From assembly GCF_054482595.1 (NCBI RefSeq), contig NZ_CM137008.1: a DNA stretch of 64,000 nucleotides. One strand, 5' to 3'. Under the pieces are notes generated by a model. The model saw only the letters and a program-made list of their open reading frames with translations, was not told the origin of the DNA and did not search any database. Position numbers and translations under genes: made by a program. This document shows positions 5,174-14,035 of this stretch, piece after piece (the first letter of the stretch is position 1; each line of letters starts with the position of its first letter).

Positions 5174-5695
5174 TTATTCATCGATGCATTTTATAGAATC
5201 ATCAATGGCCATAATAGTACTATTAACTCTCCACTTTATATTTTTATCATCACTACAAATATTAACTGAATTTATATCAATGATTTTTTTATTCTTATCT
5301 TTTGTTTTATTTACTGTTTCAATGCAATCAGCGGCAAGTTGGAGTGGATTTAGATTTTTCAGATATGGTCTTATGATCTTTCCCTTACTTAATAAATAGC
5401 ATGTATAGGATTCGGAAAGTCCAGCATCTATTTTGTACCTCATTATATTAGATAAGGATGTGAGAAATTCCTTGTTATCATTCGCAGCCATATATGCCAG
5501 TCCGAGTTCAGCCTCTGCGGCCTTACAGGCAAAATAGCTAAGTGAACACGCTTTTCGTCCCTCTTTAGTACTGGCTGATATTAGTGCCCATAATATTGCT
5601 TTGTCTGCCAAATCTAACTCTCTCTGAAATTGTCTTGCAGTAACTGCACTCGCAGAAATAGAGAAAAAAAATACAATTGTTAATAACTTTGCCAT
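5174..5695 (-). CDS. Putative secreted immunity protein for the adjacent orphan Rhs toxin tip (yibG-like by position)
   Basis: 173-aa ORF with a signal-peptide-like N-terminus (MAKLLTIVFFFSISASAVTA); AT-rich; directly downstream of the orphan Rhs C-terminal module. Confidence 0.55.
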   Translation of the reverse strand: MAKLLTIVFFFSISASAVTARQFQRELDLADKAILWALISASTKEGRKACSLSYFACKAAEAELGLAYMAANDNKEFLTSLSNIMRYKIDAGLSESYTCYLLSKGKIIRPYLKNLNPLQLAADCIETVNKTKDKNKKIIDINSVNICSDDKNIKWRVNSTIMAIDDSIKCIDE

Positions 5696-5700
5696 ATTTT

Positions 5701-6594
5701 TTAGTCCGTAACTGTTAATGTGCTATCTGGCTCTGAAAATATTAACTCATTTAATTTTTGCATGTCATTAGATGAACCAGTTATACAACCCTCGGAACAG
5801 AATCGAGGTCCTAAAGACGGACCGAAAGCGTTTAAACAACTATGTGTTAAAAATCCATCACGATTATATGTTTCTGTATTTGCTGACGGTACTAAACGTA
5901 TACCATTAGGTTTTCTATTGGTTGCTCCAGGACCATTAACATTCCAGCTCCATACCCCTTGAGGTATTGGACCTCTATTTTGTAAGTGTGTACAACCAGG
6001 ATTATTTTTACATTGCATATTATTACCATTATTACCAGAGGCGACAGGAATAGTAAGCACATCATAAGAGTTATCATCATTTTGCGTATCTGAAACGCAT
6101 GAAAGCATACTTAAAGTTATGCTGTATAAACAGGTCGCTAATCCCAACGGGTCAATATCAGTTATCGGATTCAACGGATACTGATAAAAATTCCATCCCC
6201 CTTTCAGCCCAATCGGATCCTGAGTGATATATCGCCCCTGCAGCGGGTCATAATAGCGGTGGCGGTTGTAATACAGGCCGGACTCCTCATCATACTGCTG
6301 CCCCGGCAGGCGGATAAGCTGCTGCAGCTGATGCGGGTTCTCTTCATTCAGCAGGTTGCCCCACTCATCGTATTCTGCGCACCATTCTGTAGCACCTTCC
6401 GTGCTGATAAGCGCCAGCGGCAGGCCGCGATGGTCGCAGTGGTACAGGTGGATTTTTCGCGCCGGCGTGTACACCGGGTCCATCTGGTTTTGCATCTGCG
6501 CCACCGTCAGGCCGCACGATGCCAGCCAGCGGCGGCTTTCCTCACTCACCCGGTCAGCCAGGATTTCACTTTCCAGCCGGTCGAGCATCTGCAC
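5701..6594 (-). CDS. Orphan Rhs C-terminal module: truncated core end (through DPxGL) plus variable toxin tip, no native start (yibJ-like by position)
   Basis: ORF contains ...[39 protein letters not shown] followed by a ~145-aa AT-rich tip; homology to the main rhs core stops abruptly near 6595. Confidence 0.75.
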
Positions 6595-6595
6595 C
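6165..6595 (-). repeat. Rhs 3' core repeat, copy 3 (partial)
   Basis: About 430 bp near-identical to 10330-10760 and 8462-8890 (e.g. ccaatcggatcctgagtgatata...gcgggtcataatagcggtggcggttgtaatacaggccggactcctcatcatactgctg). Confidence 0.9.
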
Positions 6596-6635
6596 GTGCC
6601 GGCGGGAATCCCCCACTGTGCATAGGCAACTCACG

Positions 6636-7478
6636 CTATGAACGCTTCAGCTTATCAATAGCGGAAGTTATAATTTCATTGTCATCAAACTTGTACAACA
6701 TAGTATCTAAAACAGGAAGTAGCGTTTTATCACCTAATTCACCCGCAGCTTCAATGATATCATCATAAACAGTATTTTTTTTTAACTCATCGCATAAAAC
6801 AGATAAAACCCTTTTATCTTTTCTGTAGGAAAGTCAGATTATTGCTTCAATACGGACTTCCTCATTTTTATCCTGAAGCATCTCCACAAAATAATCCCTA
6901 ATATCACTATTATCATATTTATTGATATTTATTGCAAATGCGGCCCAGTTTCTGACATCTCCATTTGGATCTTTTAACAGATTAATCAATAGTGGAATTG
7001 TTGCTTTATCATTGATAACAGAAATAGCAAATGCTGTAGCACGTCTGACATTAGTCGATTTATCAAAAGCAGTAATTTGAGATTGTTCTACTATTTTAGG
7101 TGAATAATTTGGGTTTTTCTTGCATCGCTGAGCCGTTGACTCGATTGCCGTAGCTCGAACGCAAGCGCTCTTATCATTCAATGCCATATTGTTCAAAATA
7201 TTAAAAACATTATCTTCGCATTTTTTGCAAATTTTTATTTGCCCGAGTATAAATGCTCCGATATCTCTACGGATATAATTTTTATCAGAGCAGAACTCAA
7301 TTGCCAATCTAACAGCGTCTTGCCCACCTCTTAACTGTAATACTCTGGCAGATGAAATCCTTTTCAAGGAATTGTGATCATCAAGTAAGCGAAATAATTC
7401 ATCATCATTTAGTTTCTTACATTGATTATATAAACCATACTCTTTACTTGCCTTTCTTTTCTGGTATGTATTTGACAT
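6636..7478 (-). pseudogene. yibA: HEAT-repeat protein YibA, interrupted by an in-frame TGA
   Basis: Translation from the MSNTYQKRKASKEYGLYNQCKK start reads to ...EVRIEAII then TGA (6834-6836); the same frame continues LSYRKDKRVLSVLCDELKKNTVYDD...DKLKRS to a TAG at 6636-6638. Confidence 0.7.
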
Positions 7479-7582
7479 TGCAGGAACCTCCACAAAGGCT
7501 ATCTTTTTTTATCGTTTGACTGTCTGGAGTCCTCCACCTACTCTGCCATCAGCGCACACGATGTTTGATTATCCTTACATAC

Positions 7583-7966
7583 TTATTTTCCGTGGCCAAA
7601 ATTCAGAATTCTCCCATCATTTTTGCCTATTTCTATAATAAAAACCCCACCAGCAATTTGGTCTGAGTGAATGGTACCTTCAACAACCCAACTTGTTGTT
7701 AACTCAGTGATTTCGTATGGTTTTTCTTCTTCTGCGGCATCCTGTCCATAACGATTCTTAACATATATCTCAGCTAATTCCAATGCTATAGCTTTATTTT
7801 TAACCAAATTTCTAACGGTATATTTACCTTCACTTTCATACTTGCGCATTATTTTAATATTATTATTACACTGCGCCCATGTGTTGTATGTAAAAACAAA
7901 CAAAGATACAATGACACATTTCCTAAACAATATTTTTTTACATATTACCATGAACTCTGCAGACAT
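7583..7966 (-). CDS. Putative immunity protein for orphan Rhs tip 1 (possibly a lipoprotein or secreted)
   Basis: 127-aa ORF, AT-rich, hydrophobic N-terminus ([24 protein letters not shown]); overlaps the 3' end of the orphan toxin ORF; true start may be the internal Met at 7951. Confidence 0.5.
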
Positions 7967-9407
7967 TAGGTAATCCTTTTCCGTTTGTTATTTCCTTCCC
8001 GTGGTTATCTATTGCTTTAAAATTACCACTGGGCGTACCTAAATAAAATGACTTGATATTGTTATCTTTACTTTTAACTATTTTCTCATCTTTACCTGAA
8101 AATATTTCGTCCCAATATTCTCCATGACTATCTGCACCATGAGTATGATAAGCTGATACTTTCTCAGTACCATTAGGGCAAGGGCTATTGAATGGATATG
8201 ATCCTTTTCTTTCTCCTCGGTTAGGTGCTGTTGAGAAATATCTGCCACTATTATCCTTACATATTAAACCAGCGAACTCTTTATCTTCGCAAATAGATTG
8301 GCTATTTATTTTATTTAAGGCGTCATATGCGGTGCTATCTATAGAATCAAATTTATCTGGACCTATCATAGCGGATAGTGTGCCGCAAAGACCATTAGTA
8401 CATGCCCCCGATTTTGCATCCTCCCACATAGATAAACCCAGGGGGTCGATGTCTGATATCGGATTCAATTGATATCCATACAGGTTCCATCCCCCCTTCA
8501 GCCCAATCGGATCCTGAGTGATATACCTCCCCTGCAGCGGGTCATAATAGCGGTGGCGGTTGTAATACAGGCCGGACTCCTCATCATACTGCTGACCCGG
8601 CAGGCGGATGAGCTGCTGCAGCTGGTGCGGGTTCTCTTCATTCAGCAGGTTGCCCCATTCATCGTATTCTGCGCACCATTCTGTAGCCCCTTCCGTGCTG
8701 ATAAGCGCCAGCGGCAGGCCGCGATGGTCGCAGTGGTACAGGTGGATTTTTCGCGCCGGCGTGTACACCGGGTCCATCTGGTTTTGCATCTGCTCCACCG
8801 TCAGGCCGCACGATGCCAGCCAGCGGCGGCTTTCCTCACTCACCCGGTCAGCCAGGATTTCACTTTCCAGCCGGTCGAGCATCTGCACCAGCACCGGCGG
8901 GAACACCACACTGCCACCGTCTTCGCCGCCGGACTGCTGAAGGGCATCCGCCAGGCTGCGGCGCTGCGTTTTCGCCAGCTCACCGGTGGCAGTTTCGACC
9001 CTGATGAGTGGCGTGAAGCTCCCCGGCTGATAAATCGTCTGGATGCGGCTCCTGTCGTTCTGTATCGTGGTCAGCCGGTCGCCGTCCCAGCCGTACCAGG
9101 TCACTTGCGGTTTCCGTGACAGCGACATCCAGCCCGTCAGGTCCCGTTCACGCCGCCACACCCGTTTTGCCACCCTGCGGCCCAGCGGGTCGTAAAGATA
9201 GCGACTTTCGACCAGCGGCTCTGCATATTGTGTCCGCGTGTAGTGCACCAGCCGGTGCTGACTGTCGTAATGGTACCGGTGGGTGCGCTCATCATCCGTG
9301 CGGATAACCCCTTCCGGGATGAGGTCGGTTTTCTCCGTCAGCCTGCCGTGACGGTCATACCGGTAAAGATAGTGCGCGTCACGGGCGATACGGTTATCCG
9401 GCCACAT
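7938..9407 (-). CDS. Orphan Rhs C-terminal module 1: about 1 kb of core 3' end plus a distinct ~175-aa toxin tip, no native start
   Basis: 489-aa ORF beginning inside core sequence ([18 protein letters not shown]...), includes [27 protein letters not shown] then an AT-rich tip; core homology to the main gene ends near 9480. Confidence 0.75.
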
Positions 9408-9480
9408 GCTGAGGGCGCTGTCCGGGTGCAGCTCCGGGTCGGGCAGGCGGTTACCTGCCGGGTCTGTGGCATACGGGATA
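8462..9480 (-). repeat. Rhs 3' core repeat, copy 2
   Basis: About 1 kb highly similar to 10330-11350 of the main rhs gene. Confidence 0.9.
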
Positions 9481-9524
9481 TCAATGCCCAGGTTACATAT
9501 AATAATAAGAGCAATTAACTTAAT

Positions 9525-9851
9525 TTATTTGTTTATAATGCGCTTACTTAATACAAACCATTGAATATACCCTCCTGACAGAAAATAAAGCCATATTATT
9601 ATCGCCATAATATACTTACTATCAATCCTTACGCCAATAATGTCTGATACAGTCCCTATAAATATTAGAGCAATAAAGAATACTATGCCTGTTGGAAAAC
9701 ATATTACCATCATTCCATAAGACATGAGACTAATTAACTCGCTCACATCACGAGTGGAGTCTAATAGTGAAAGTCTATGCATGGAAAAGAATAGTATTAA
9801 AAGCGATAAAGCCAGCCATATAGCTCTGAATAAAAAAATAATATATTTCAT
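9525..9851 (-). CDS. Putative RhsI immunity protein (small polytopic membrane protein) for the main Rhs tip
   Basis: 108-aa ORF with about three hydrophobic helices; start codon overlaps the rhs stop by 1 nt (TAATG); AT-rich. Confidence 0.6.
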   Translation of the reverse strand: MKYIIFLFRAIWLALSLLILFFSMHRLSLLDSTRDVSELISLMSYGMMVICFPTGIVFFIALIFIGTVSDIIGVRIDSKYIMAIIIWLYFLSGGYIQWFVLSKRIINK

Positions 9852-12800
9852 TACATCACTCCGGTGAATACAAATCTAATAAAACGTCCAATGTTATTTC
9901 CGGAGCACTTCATCTTACATGTTTCTAAAGAATCATTAGACCAGTCTTGGCAGTTTTTAAATAGCCCTAAATTTATAGGTGTGAATATATCAGGCAATAC
10001 AGAATAACGCGGCCTTACCTCTTTAAACTTCCCTTTTAAACAGTTCTCCACACAACTATTATCGGTTTCAACGAGGTCACAACGGCCAGCAGCTTCTTTT
10101 GTATCATTACTTGCTTTACCTGGCCCCCATAGACCATCTCCTTTTGATTCTCCCCGTTGGTCTTGGCCACCACAAGTATAGTCCCCTTTACCATCTGGGA
10201 CACAAAGATATTGATGATAGAACGGATTCCCCCATATATCTGGACCGCTTCTTTCACCAGTTCCGCCCATTGAATGCAGTGGCTTAATGCATTTTAGTGT
10301 TTCTAATCCTAATGGATCTATATTTGAGATCGGATTCAACGGATACTGATAAAAATTCCATCCCCCCTTCAGCCCAATCGGATCCTGAGTGATATACCGC
10401 CCCTGCAGCGGGTCATAATAGCGGTGGCGGTTGTAATACAGGCCGGACTCCTCATCATACTGCTGCCCCGGCAGCCGGATAAGCTGCTGCAGCTGATGCG
10501 GGTTCTCTTCATTCAGCAGGTTGCCCCATTCATCATATTCTGCGCACCACGCTGTTGCCCCTTCCGTGCTGATGAGCGCCAGCGGCAGGCCGCGATGGTC
10601 GCAGTGGTACAGGTGGATTTTTCGCGCCGGCGTGTACACCGGGTCCATCTGGTTTTGCATCTGCTCCACGGTCAGGCCGCACGATGCCAGCCAGCGGCGG
10701 CTTTCCTCACTCACCCGGTCAGCCAGGATTTCACTTTCCAGCCGGTCGAGCATCTGCACCAGCACCGGCGGGAACACCACACTGCCACCGTCTTCGCCGC
10801 CGGACTGCTGAAGCGCATCCGCCAGGCTGCGGCGCTGCGTTCTGGCCAGTTCACCGGTGGCAGTTTCAACTCTGATGAGTGGTGTGAAGCTCCCCGGCTG
10901 ATAAATCGTCTGGATGCGGCTCCTGTCGTTCTGTATCGTGGTCAGCCGGTCGCCGTCCCAGCCGTACCAGGTCACTTGCGGTTTCCGTGACAGCGACATC
11001 CAGCCCGTCAGGTCCCGTTCACGTCGCCATACCCGTTTTGCCACCCTGCGGCCCAGCGGGTCGTAAAGATAGCGACTTTCGACCAGCGGCTCTGCATATT
11101 GTGTCCGCGTGTAGTGCACCAGCCGGTGCTGACTGTCGTAATGGTACCGGTGGGTGCGCTCATCATCCGTACGGATACCCCCTTCCGGGATGAGGTCGGT
11201 TTTCTCCGTCAGCCTGCCGTAACGGTCATACCGGTAAAGATAGTGCGCGTCACGGGCGATACGGTTATCCGGCCACATGCTGAGGGTGCTGTCCGGGTGC
11301 AGCTCCGGGTCGGGCAGGCGGTTGCCCGCCGGGTCCGTGGCATACGGGATGCGGATATCCAGATTCGCTGCGGTGGTGTGAACGCCGGTCAGCCTGCCGG
11401 TGGTGCTGTAGCTGTAACTCCGGGTCTGGCGCGGGCTGCTGATGCGGATGAGTTCGCCGTTGTCGTTCCAGGTGTAATCGCGGTCATACTGCAGGCTGTT
11501 CAGGTGCTGACGCTGTAACTGCCCGGCAGGGGTGTAAGCGGTGGTGAGTTCATAACGACCGAAGCTGCGCAGCGTTTCCCGGTGCAGGCGGTCGCGGGTG
11601 AAATCCACCAGCGGTGTGTCGCCGAGCTTCATGCCTGCCAGCCAGCCGCTGCCGTAGGTCAGCCATTCCACGGCGGGCAGGCTGTCCGGTATACAGCGGT
11701 TCGCCAGTCCCTGCGCGTTGTACGCATGTCTGGTCTCATGCTGCCAGAGCAGTGCTTCCGTCTGCGGGTGATGCACCGTCTGGCGCTCACCGGTCAGGCG
11801 GCCTTTCTCATCATACCTGTAATGCACCGCTACCCGGTGCCCTTCGCTGATATGGCTGATGTCTGTCAGCCAGCCACGTTCGTCATACCGCCACCGCTCT
11901 GCGGTTTCACCCTTCACGGTGCGGTGCGTGAGGCGGTCTGCTTCGTCATAGTGCCAGTGGGTGACCAGACCCTCATCCTCGCTGCGGATAAGTTTGCCGG
12001 TCAGGTCGTGGTGATAACGCTGTGTGCGGCCGTCAAAGCCGGTTTCCTGTATCAGCCGGTCAAGTACATCGTAACGGAAGGTGGTGTGGCTGCCGTTTTC
12101 ACTGGTCAGGCGGATGACCCGTCCGGCAGCATCGTATTCCATACTGCGCGTCAGCCCGCCCTGCGTGGTACGGACGGCCTTTCCCCACGCATCGTACTGT
12201 GTCCCGTTTCTGCTGCCGTCCGGGGCAATGACGGCGGTCAGGTCACCGGCGATGTTGTATTCATACCGCGTTTCATGGCCCTGCGTGTCTTTCACGGCAA
12301 TTAACTGTCCACGGCTGTCGTATGCGCGGTACTGGCTCAGCCCTTCCTCGCGGTGCACCGCCGTCATCTGCCCGAAGCGGTCATGGTCATAACGGGTCTG
12401 GTAGCCGGAACAGTCGGTGAAGCTCAGCAACTGGCCGTAACGGCTCCACGTCATGGTTTTCCGGCTGCCGGTGGCATCGTCCGTTGCGCAGGGGAGGTCA
12501 CTGTGTGGATTATCATAACGGTAGCGGGTGATATCGCCGTCAGGGGCGGTTTCCTGAATCAGACGGCCGGATTCATCATATTCCCGGCGCAATTCCAGCC
12601 CGTCAGGCCCGGTGGCTGACGTTAACTGGTTGTGGTGGTTATAGTAAAACGCCGATGCCCTGCCATCCGGCGTGGTTATGCGCGTGATGAGGCCCGTCAC
12701 CACATCCGGGCTGTACTCTGTTGTCCTGCCTGCGGCATCCGTCTGTGCCCTGAGCCTGCCCACGGCGTCAAACTGACTCTGCGTGACGCTGCCGTCCGCG

Positions 12801-14035
12801 TGTTCCTTTTTCACCACCCGCTTCAGCCCGGCTTCGCCCTGCGTGTGCAGCACTTCACGGCGGTCCAGGCTGTCGGTGATGGTGATGCGGTCTTTCTCAT
12901 ACTGATACGTGTAGCTTAAGCCTGCCGGGTTTAGCTGTTCTGTCACCCGCCCGTCGCTGTCGTAACGGTAACGGATTTCCGGCCGGCCCGTGTGACGGTG
13001 CGCCACCATCCGGCCCCGGTATTTATCATCGTAAGTAAAGCTGCGCACCTGTGTATTGCTGCGGTCATACACTGCCGCCAGTTCGCCGCGCGGCGTCCAG
13101 CCATAGCGCACCAGCGGCGCGGCAGGTAAATTCTCCGGGTATTCCGGGTCGTGCGTCAGCCACACGGCAGACAGACGGATGCCGTTGTCCCGGCCATATT
13201 CGGTGTAACCCGGCAGGGTATCAGGAAAAGCGGACGGTTCCGTCCCGCCGGAAATGGCCTGCTGCCGGGCTTCTTCTGCCTGCTGCGCCTGCGTGGTCAG
13301 TACCAGCCGGAAGTGACGCCCGGCACCATCCGTCACGCCGGTGATTTCGCCGCTGAATTCACCGGCGGCTTCGCGGTGGAACGTCTGTGTGCGCCCGAAG
13401 CGGTCCACCAGCCCGGTCAGTACCCGGTACGGCGGCAGCGGCGCAGGCAGCACCTCATCCGCTTCCGGCACCCGCTCACACCACCACCACGGCCCCTGCG
13501 GACTGTTTGTCGCCAGATAACGATGCGGACTTAAGCGGAGTTCTTCCGGCAGCGCCTGCCAGAGTGCGGCCAGCCGGTGACCTTCATCCAGTTTCGCCAC
13601 GCCGCCGCGCACCAGCCACAGTGACTCGCTGCGGCTGTAACCGTCCTCACCGGGAAACAGGTGCTCAAAATACAGGCTTCTGCCGCCGTTATCACTGAGT
13701 ATCAGTGTGTTATCGCGCAGCTGTAAGCGGATATCCGCAGGCATTTTCCAGCCGGGGCCGAGGCTCCCCACCGGCGCGGGCGTTTTTGTCCGGTAACTGC
13801 TGTAGGTGCGGGAGAGGATGAACGGCAGCGGGGCGGGCAGGGCGATGTCGGTTTCACCGGGAAGGACCTTTGCACCGAGCAGGGGATTGACCGGATGGCC
13901 GGACGTCACTCCGCCGGGGCACCCCGAACAGGCCACACCGGTTGGGGCACCGATGCGCACCCCGGCTGAACCCTGAACAATGCTACCGCCATACTGCGTC
14001 ATGTCGCCCTGACGCGCCGCCGGTTTTCCGCTCAT
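9851..14035 (-). CDS. rhsA: Rhs-family polymorphic toxin with N-terminal PAAR-like domain, YD-repeat core and variable C-terminal tip
   Basis: 1394-aa ORF; N-terminus [42 protein letters not shown] (PAAR-like); many YD repeats; DPLGL hinge followed by a ~150-aa Cys-rich AT-rich tip; sits next to yibF as rhsA does in K-12. Confidence 0.9.
10330..11350 (-). repeat. Rhs 3' core repeat, copy 1 (within the main rhs gene)
   Basis: Source copy of the about 1-kb segment duplicated in the two orphan modules. Confidence 0.9.

Follow-up and report, generated by a model that had tools for sequence, protein, structure and literature searches.

In this study we focus on an orphan Rhs cassette, a Rhs core fragment with its tip followed by the small gene yhhH, which lies in a stretch of 64,000 nucleotides (nt) of contig NZ_CM137008.1 (NCBI RefSeq assembly GCF_054482595.1; hereafter the window, numbered from its first letter). 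Judged from its open reading frame (ORF) content and from matches of 100% identity to strains Santai and XH990, the window covers the rhsA region of an Escherichia coli chromosome in reverse-strand reading (mtlA, yibI, yibH … yibF, selA). In the direction of transcription, a full-length main Rhs gene with an RhsC-type tip is followed by a ybfB-like ORF, the orphan core fragment with its tip and yhhH, a short remnant of an RhsA-type tip and a yibA pseudogene (Table 1). An initial annotation, made from the letters alone, had proposed that an orphan Rhs tip is followed here by a partner of the immunity type, and this was borne out: the orphan retains the 3' quarter of the core, and both ORFs match Pfam families with E values which indicate that they are real, far beyond chance. 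The DIDPLGL-S motif at the end of the core can be read directly, and an AT-rich tip and a small downstream ORF come after it. The GC content falls from 0.615 in the core to 0.377 in the tip and 0.331 in the yhhH partner. A GC-rich core with an AT-rich tip and partner is the classic Rhs pattern.

Table 1. Features of the orphan Rhs cassette and its surroundings, in window coordinates.
Feature	Position	Strand	Basis or remark
Full-length main Rhs gene	9851-14035	minus	
Main-gene tip, RhsC-type	9851-10324	minus	rhsC annotation at the identical Santai locus
ybfB-like membrane ORF, 108 amino acids (aa)	9525-9851	minus	ybfB annotation in the identical Santai locus
Putative displacing cassette (RhsC-type tip plus ybfB-like ORF)	9525-10324	minus	
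Direct repeat inside the main Rhs gene, counterpart of the orphan core	10325-11350	minus	blastn
Orphan Rhs core fragment, 3' quarter	8463-9479	minus	ends with the DPLGL cleavage motif
Predicted toxin tip, 164 aa, DUF4329 / Tox-JAB-2	7941-8432 (stop 7938-7940)	minus	
Codon of E52 (predicted catalytic motif)	8277-8279	minus	
Codons of H96-T97-H98 (predicted catalytic motif)	8139-8147	minus	
Codon of S112 (predicted catalytic motif)	8097-8099	minus	
Codon of D115 (predicted catalytic motif)	8088-8090	minus	
yhhH, predicted immunity partner, 127 aa	7583-7966	minus	overlaps the toxin end by 29 nt
RhsA-type tip, 3'-end remnant, 32 nt, upstream of yibA	7499-7530	minus	blastn
yibA pseudogene (HEAT-repeat immunity gene, partner of the RhsA tip in K-12)	6636-7478	minus	Pfam HEAT_2
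Second Rhs fragment with Tlde1 domain	5701-6594	minus	
Imm57 gene	5174-5695	minus	

Translation of the minus strand over 7938-8462 reproduces the peptide quoted in the initial annotation and ends in VCRVHGNM and a stop codon. Because the conserved core extends over the first 10 residues of this translation, the tip itself comprises the 164 aa after DPLGL, and the earlier estimate of about 175 aa is corrected to this length. The tip had also been left without a known family. A hidden Markov model (HMM) search assigns it to Pfam DUF4329, the Tox-JAB-2 family, with 132.9 bits (gathering cut-off 28.6; E=6.7e-39; profile positions 2-112 of 116), and 163 of its 164 residues are identical to the C-terminus of RhsB from K-12 MG1655, the sole change being G151 in place of R. 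The partner matches Pfam Imm-NTF2-2 with 92.1 bits (cut-off 26; E=2.5e-26) over the full profile (1-68), which falls on YhhH residues 60-127, and it shares 126 of 127 residues with K-12 YhhH; residues Y73 and W93 of the YhhH family are invariant in 11 sequences. Both families were named by Zhang et al. (2012), who described Tox-JAB-2 by the motif E, H[ST]H, S, D ('DUF4329 in Pfam') and paired it with Imm-NTF2-2 (PMC3482391). With presence counted at a coverage of at least 80%, the DNA of tip and yhhH was found in 2683 of the 5426 complete E. coli genomes, as a rule in one copy per genome. In the identity of its parts, the cassette is almost certainly the RhsB-type toxin/immunity module of E. 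coli, which has already been catalogued. As a genome feature it is ordinary, being made of K-12 genes that occur in half of the complete E. coli genomes and belong to families named in 2012. About 273 genomes have a diverged form of yhhH, with nucleotide identity of about 88%. The one copy of this variant inspected, in Survcare321 (L011, 6948-7580), is frameshifted, has lost the JAB tip and lies at the yhhJ (rhsB) locus, where the variant adjoins a full yibA and short fragments annotated 'pentapeptide repeat-containing protein'.

Only the distal part of a Rhs protein is encoded by the orphan. It matches the NCBIfam model RHS_core (1261 positions) at positions 937-1261 only, with 693 bits against a cut-off of 2000, and its frame aligns to K-12 RhsB (1411 aa) over approximately the C-terminal 518 residues. 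The N-terminal domain is lacking, the first in-frame ATG is found at 9407 with no Shine-Dalgarno sequence before it, and the identical Santai sequence is annotated by RefSeq as a partial rhsB pseudogene. Moreover, the orphan has no N-terminal PAAR or loading domain of the kind that defines PAAR-Rhs effectors that belong to type VI secretion systems (T6SS). The yhhH gene has a good ribosome-binding site, with AAGGA 7 nt upstream of its ATG.

The history of the cassette can be followed through its junctions. From 9479 to 7128 the window corresponds to the K-12 rhsB locus at 98.7% identity (blastn), covering the 3' part of the core, the tip, yhhH and the pseudogene yrhC. Positions 7530..6166 align to positions 5286..6650 of the K-12 rhsA locus at 98.2% (blastn); as rhsA ends at 5317, this match starts 32 nt before the end of rhsA and runs on through yibA. 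From these matches, the RhsB tip and yhhH sit immediately upstream of yibA with a 32-nt RhsA-type scar. The K-12 rhsB locus bears the same 32-nt scar, and yrhC is a fragment of yibA. The shared scar implies that the joining of the RhsB tip and yhhH to yibA predates the origin of the K-12 rhsB element. Occupancy of the rhsA locus was judged from individually inspected loci of four other strains. In YZMc10-2, STS73-1-E and LD67-1 (L005, L012, L014), the full-length Rhs gene at yibF…mtlA has the same tip at its end, with yhhH and yibA behind it; RM8082 (L013) has the same arrangement at yibF…mtlA, but its Rhs gene is interrupted by ISEc1. This split of the main Rhs gene in RM8082 (9833-10969) by ISEc1, an H-repeat element of the ISAs1 family, represents another route by which a tip is detached from a working gene. 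Adjacency of yhhH and yibA was considered as a marker of the rhsA locus and dropped, as Survcare321 shows the adjacency at the yhhJ (rhsB) locus.

The arrangement in the window, with ybfB and about 1 kb of core ahead of this tip, was found in only 24 of the 5426 genomes. Positions 9900..8485 are 99.0% identical to K-12 rhsC-ybfB-ybfO (blastn) with an identical ybfB-to-core junction, and at 8502, 8526 and 8528 the letters of the window are those of ybfO and not those of rhsB. The proposal that the cassette is the former main tip, pushed aside by displacement, is supported by the same tip on the main Rhs at this locus in the four other strains, and we consider displacement very probable. DNA similar to rhsC-ybfB-ybfO would have recombined into a main gene that carried the RhsB tip at its end, and the right-hand crossover would lie within the final ~40 nt of the shared core (~8463-8501). 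The core fragment of the orphan would then have arrived with the incoming DNA, a detail that is added here to the displacement model. A K-12 RhsA tip as the displaced ancestor was tried and rejected: the comparison with the RhsA C-terminus that had been suggested was run and found the sequence unrelated, the K-12 counterpart being RhsB, and all that is left of an RhsA-type tip is its final 32 nt. The locus would be a clean natural case of tip displacement in which both the donor stretch and the crossover zone can be identified.

What the tip might do was approached through its family. An exhaustive HMMER search with the tip returned 753 relatives at E<=0.001, most of which lie C-terminal to the DPxGL motif of Rhs/YD proteins. 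A word-indexed homologue search had returned almost only E. coli fragments, and the diverse alignment was supplied by the HMMER search. Residues E52, H96, T97, H98, S112 and D115 are conserved at 98-99% in an alignment of 139 sequences; in a non-redundant set of 62, E52, H96, H98 and S112 are invariant and D115 is conserved in at least 90%. A search of the PDB by sequence gave only chance internalin matches for the tip (E ~0.9) and none for YhhH, and the tip has neither a solved structure nor a close PDB sequence relative. The AlphaFold2 model built from the family alignment has a confidence (pLDDT) of 94.2 and the JAB (deaminase-like) fold, and its best structural matches are peptidases, not RadC. 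Because the E/H/H/S/D residues are conserved and the model is confident, the tip is predicted to be a JAB/MPN+ domain whose zinc site is complete. In addition, Cys58 of the toxin goes together with Cys85 in 73 of 74 cases. Residues 1-24 of the tip (8361-8432, minus strand), between DPLGL and the start of DUF4329, form an extension of two short helices with a CxxxxC motif, which is typical of enterobacterial RhsB/RhsD-type tips and absent from most other family members. The enterobacterial subgroup adds four further cysteines as a block, the two of the extension appearing together with Cys48 and Cys158.

The partner offers a separate view of where the toxin acts. Residues 1-32 of YhhH resemble a signal peptide, with an n-region carrying 4 K/R, an 11-residue h-region (mean Kyte-Doolittle value 2.38) and a candidate signal peptidase I cleavage site between T-W-A and Q, and they conform to the rules for Sec export. 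Export signals begin all four of the Imm-NTF2-2 lineages examined, and the signal sequences differ among them: YhhH, its paralogue YbbC, the Enterobacter member P0289 and the metagenomic member P0296 (L009, MRRSAQLLVSLLLVLGQSVAPAVSSA), which adjoins a Rhs-DUF4329 gene. Immunity proteins of T6SS toxins reside in the compartment where the toxin acts. Combined with this rule, the exported Imm-NTF2-2 proteins suggest that the toxin acts in the periplasm. The model of the YhhH domain is of moderate quality (pLDDT 78-91 for residues 58-127) and resembles PepSY/protease propeptide, cystatin, VirB8-like and colicin M immunity domains. Both this predicted likeness to extracytoplasmic inhibitors and the co-occurrence of Cys58 and Cys85 agree with a periplasmic location, as weaker support.

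Our overall explanation is that a displaced RhsB-type orphan encodes a periplasmic JAB hydrolase which is blocked by exported YhhH, and we give it a probability of roughly 60%. When deployed, the toxin would be a Zn-dependent JAB/MPN+ hydrolase (E52, H96, H98, S112, D115), freed from the Rhs shell after DPLGL. In the periplasm of the target cell it would attack an envelope peptide or isopeptide bond, and exported YhhH would bind and block it. For the site and chemistry taken on their own, a periplasmic hydrolase rather than a cytoplasmic nuclease, we see about an even chance. The wider proposition, that RhsB/RhsD-type tips in general are not nucleases but periplasmic JAMM metallo-hydrolases of peptide or isopeptide bonds in the envelope (those of peptidoglycan stems or the Lpp-peptidoglycan link, for example), and that YhhH and YbbC inhibit them via a PepSY/cystatin-like domain, is put forward more tentatively. 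If true, these would be the first JAB-fold cell-envelope toxins, and an annotation copied for over a decade would be corrected.

Several points weigh against this explanation. The signal peptide of YhhH was judged by simple rules and not by a trained predictor, and its n-region is unusually long. At two distant Tox-JAB-2 loci (L007, L008) the small downstream ORFs have no signal peptide, so that only one of the three distant loci (L009) has an exported partner; judged from these sequences, export of the immunity protein is not a constant feature of the toxin family. The main Rhs gene has DUF6531 and RHS repeats and gave no Pfam match to PAAR at E<=0.001, and no T6SS genes are found near the locus (neighbourhood of the identical Santai locus). 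With neither nearby T6SS genes nor a PAAR match, delivery by a T6SS is assumed from the literature, where reviews class Rhs genes of this kind as 'neighbourless' Rhs (PMC6730261). A promoter and terminator scan of 7300-9900 gave fewer sites than shuffled sequence and is uninformative on the expression of yhhH. The intact state of the orphan may reflect only a recent event, given 24 carrier genomes and a neighbouring yibA that is already broken. Finally, no published experiment on this tip or on the tip/YhhH pair was found in the literature, with Ma et al. (2017) known via reviews.

Against a periplasmic hydrolase stands the label that this family carries in the literature. Zhang et al. (2012) suggested, by analogy with RadC, that toxin JAB domains might be nucleases (PMC3482391). 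Later genome surveys label DUF4329 a ribonuclease (RNase), citing Ma et al. (2017), and the introduction of an eLife paper lists Tox-JAB-2 among characterised nuclease domains. The tip would then be a cytoplasmic nuclease or RNase, and the hydrophobic N-terminus of YhhH would either have no bearing on the matter or stay uncleaved as a membrane anchor that faces the cytoplasm. However, the RNase label derives from bioinformatic classification: a review of Ma et al. (2017) gives only Rhs-CT1, CT3 and CT5 as tested and refers to CT5-CT8 as 'putative RNase' (PMC6730261), and a 2024 preprint treats the activity and substrate of Tox-JAB-2 as still not known. Moreover, export signals have been kept in four of four Imm-NTF2-2 lineages despite their differing signal sequences, and the top structural matches are peptidases and not RadC. 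The nuclease label is a prediction that the present evidence makes less likely, and we regard a cytoplasmic nuclease as unlikely. The mismatch between an exported immunity protein and the 'nuclease/RNase' label is the point of interest of this locus and bears on a very common Rhs toxin of E. coli.

A second alternative concerns the partner, whose N-terminus the initial annotation had described as a signal or lipobox sequence. The signal-peptide-like character stood, and the lipoprotein assignment did not. YhhH as an outer- or inner-membrane lipoprotein would agree with the Cys after its hydrophobic stretch (…TWAQ-C33) and with the canonical lipobox of the paralogue YbbC (L-F-A-C18). Imm65, the partner of Tox-JAB-1, is also a lipoprotein (PMC3482391). 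However, YhhH gave no match to the lipobox rule [LVI][ASTVI][GAS]C, which W-A-Q-C33 violates with Gln at -1 and Trp at -3. In orthologues Cys33 is replaced (…GWANG…, …GWAD-S…) while the small-residue T/G-W-A site, suited to signal peptidase I, is kept. The signal of YhhH is thus read, from its sequence, as probably of the signal peptidase I type, and a lipoprotein is improbable.

In its present state, the cassette would be expected to work as a source of immunity rather than as a weapon. The toxin fragment is presumably not produced, since an N-terminus, a ribosome-binding site and a loading domain are all missing, and yhhH would still be able to protect the cell against neighbours that deploy an RhsB-type toxin. 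XH990 is the one carrier strain with a reported copy number; there the cassette is the only copy in the genome and would be the cell's only RhsB-type immunity. The orphan (9479..8454) and the main gene (11350..10325) share 1026 nt at 96.5% identity with no gaps (blastn), and recombination across this direct repeat could delete 1871 bp and re-attach the tip to the main gene. By analogy with the Salmonella orphan discussed below, such an event would re-arm the tip. That the cassette is instead a decaying relic of no present function, neither protecting nor re-armable, is very improbable: the missing start signal and loading domain of the toxin fragment, a promoter scan with nothing above chance, the internal stop of neighbouring yibA and the diverged yhhH copy in ~273 genomes (frameshifted, with the toxin lost, in the one inspected) speak for it, and against it stand two intact ORFs one residue each from the K-12 proteins, the good ribosome-binding site of yhhH, the lack of another copy in XH990 and the presence of a 1026-bp repeat for a re-arming that has been demonstrated in Salmonella (PMC3967940).

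The surroundings of the cassette hold further Rhs-related genes. The product of yibA is identical to K-12 YibA in 277 of 280 aa, with G215 changed to an internal stop (6834-6836) which the Santai annotation likewise shows, and the gene is retained here without its cognate toxin. Neither the RhsC-type tip of the main gene nor YbfB matched any Pfam or NCBIfam family. Beyond yibA lies a second orphan, in which a Rhs core fragment with a Tlde1 tip (L,D-transpeptidase-like, periplasm-acting) is followed by an intact Imm57 gene (5174-6594). K-12 keeps mere remnants of this Tlde1/Imm57 orphan, and its yibV is annotated PF15596, the Imm57 family. Past the 3' end of mtlA, at ~430-730, intergenic short ORFs on both strands (e.g., …SGLQ…) are typical of REP/BIME palindromic repeats.

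Among known systems, the predicted fold is shared with the JAMM/MPN+ metalloproteases (PfJAMM1, AfJAMM, AMSH/Sst2, Rpn11, BRCC36 and Cap3 of CBASS), from which the tip differs in several respects. Sequence identity is only 11-21%, the spacing from HxH to S is 13 residues in the tip compared with the canonical 7, and the tip carries up to six cysteines as well as its additional N-terminal extension of 24 residues. The residues of the Ubl-tail tunnel are reported as not conserved (Zhang et al., 2012; PMC3482391). Tox-JAB-1/Imm65 of Bacteroidetes Rhs toxins represents the other clade of JAB-type polymorphic toxins borne by Rhs proteins, and its Imm65 carries a signal peptide and lipobox, parallel to the exported Imm-NTF2-2 (Zhang et al., 2012; PMC3482391). 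It is set apart by its published description as a separate sequence clade with a different immunity family.

Much closer is the pair of the K-12 RhsD tip and YbbC, which is paralogous to the one described here (DUF4329, E=7.7e-38; Imm-NTF2-2, E=4.4e-26) and likewise combines a Cys-containing N-terminal extension of the toxin with an exported immunity protein. The two pairs differ in sequence, the toxins being ~51% and the immunity proteins 48% identical, and in the lipobox that is present in YbbC and absent from YhhH. The K-12 RhsB tip and YhhH (b3482/b3483) are essentially the same genes, with the same 29-nt overlap and the same downstream scar, made of 32 nt of RhsA-type tip and the start of yibA (yrhC in the K-12 annotation). 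What separates them is context: in K-12 the tip is part of a full-length Rhs at nikR-yhhJ, whereas in the window it is a truncated orphan at yibF-mtlA behind an RhsC-type tip and ybfB. For this orphan state the best parallel is rhs-CT orphan/rhsI orphan (STM0292) of Salmonella Typhimurium LT2, where an orphan tip with a core fragment likewise lies downstream of the main rhs and has no translation start. There, a 522-bp repeat with 95% identity allows recombination between main gene and orphan that arms the orphan, as was shown experimentally (PMC3967940). The LT2 toxin belongs to another family, and the repeat in the window is longer (1026 bp, 96.5%), so that re-arming here would be expected by analogy.

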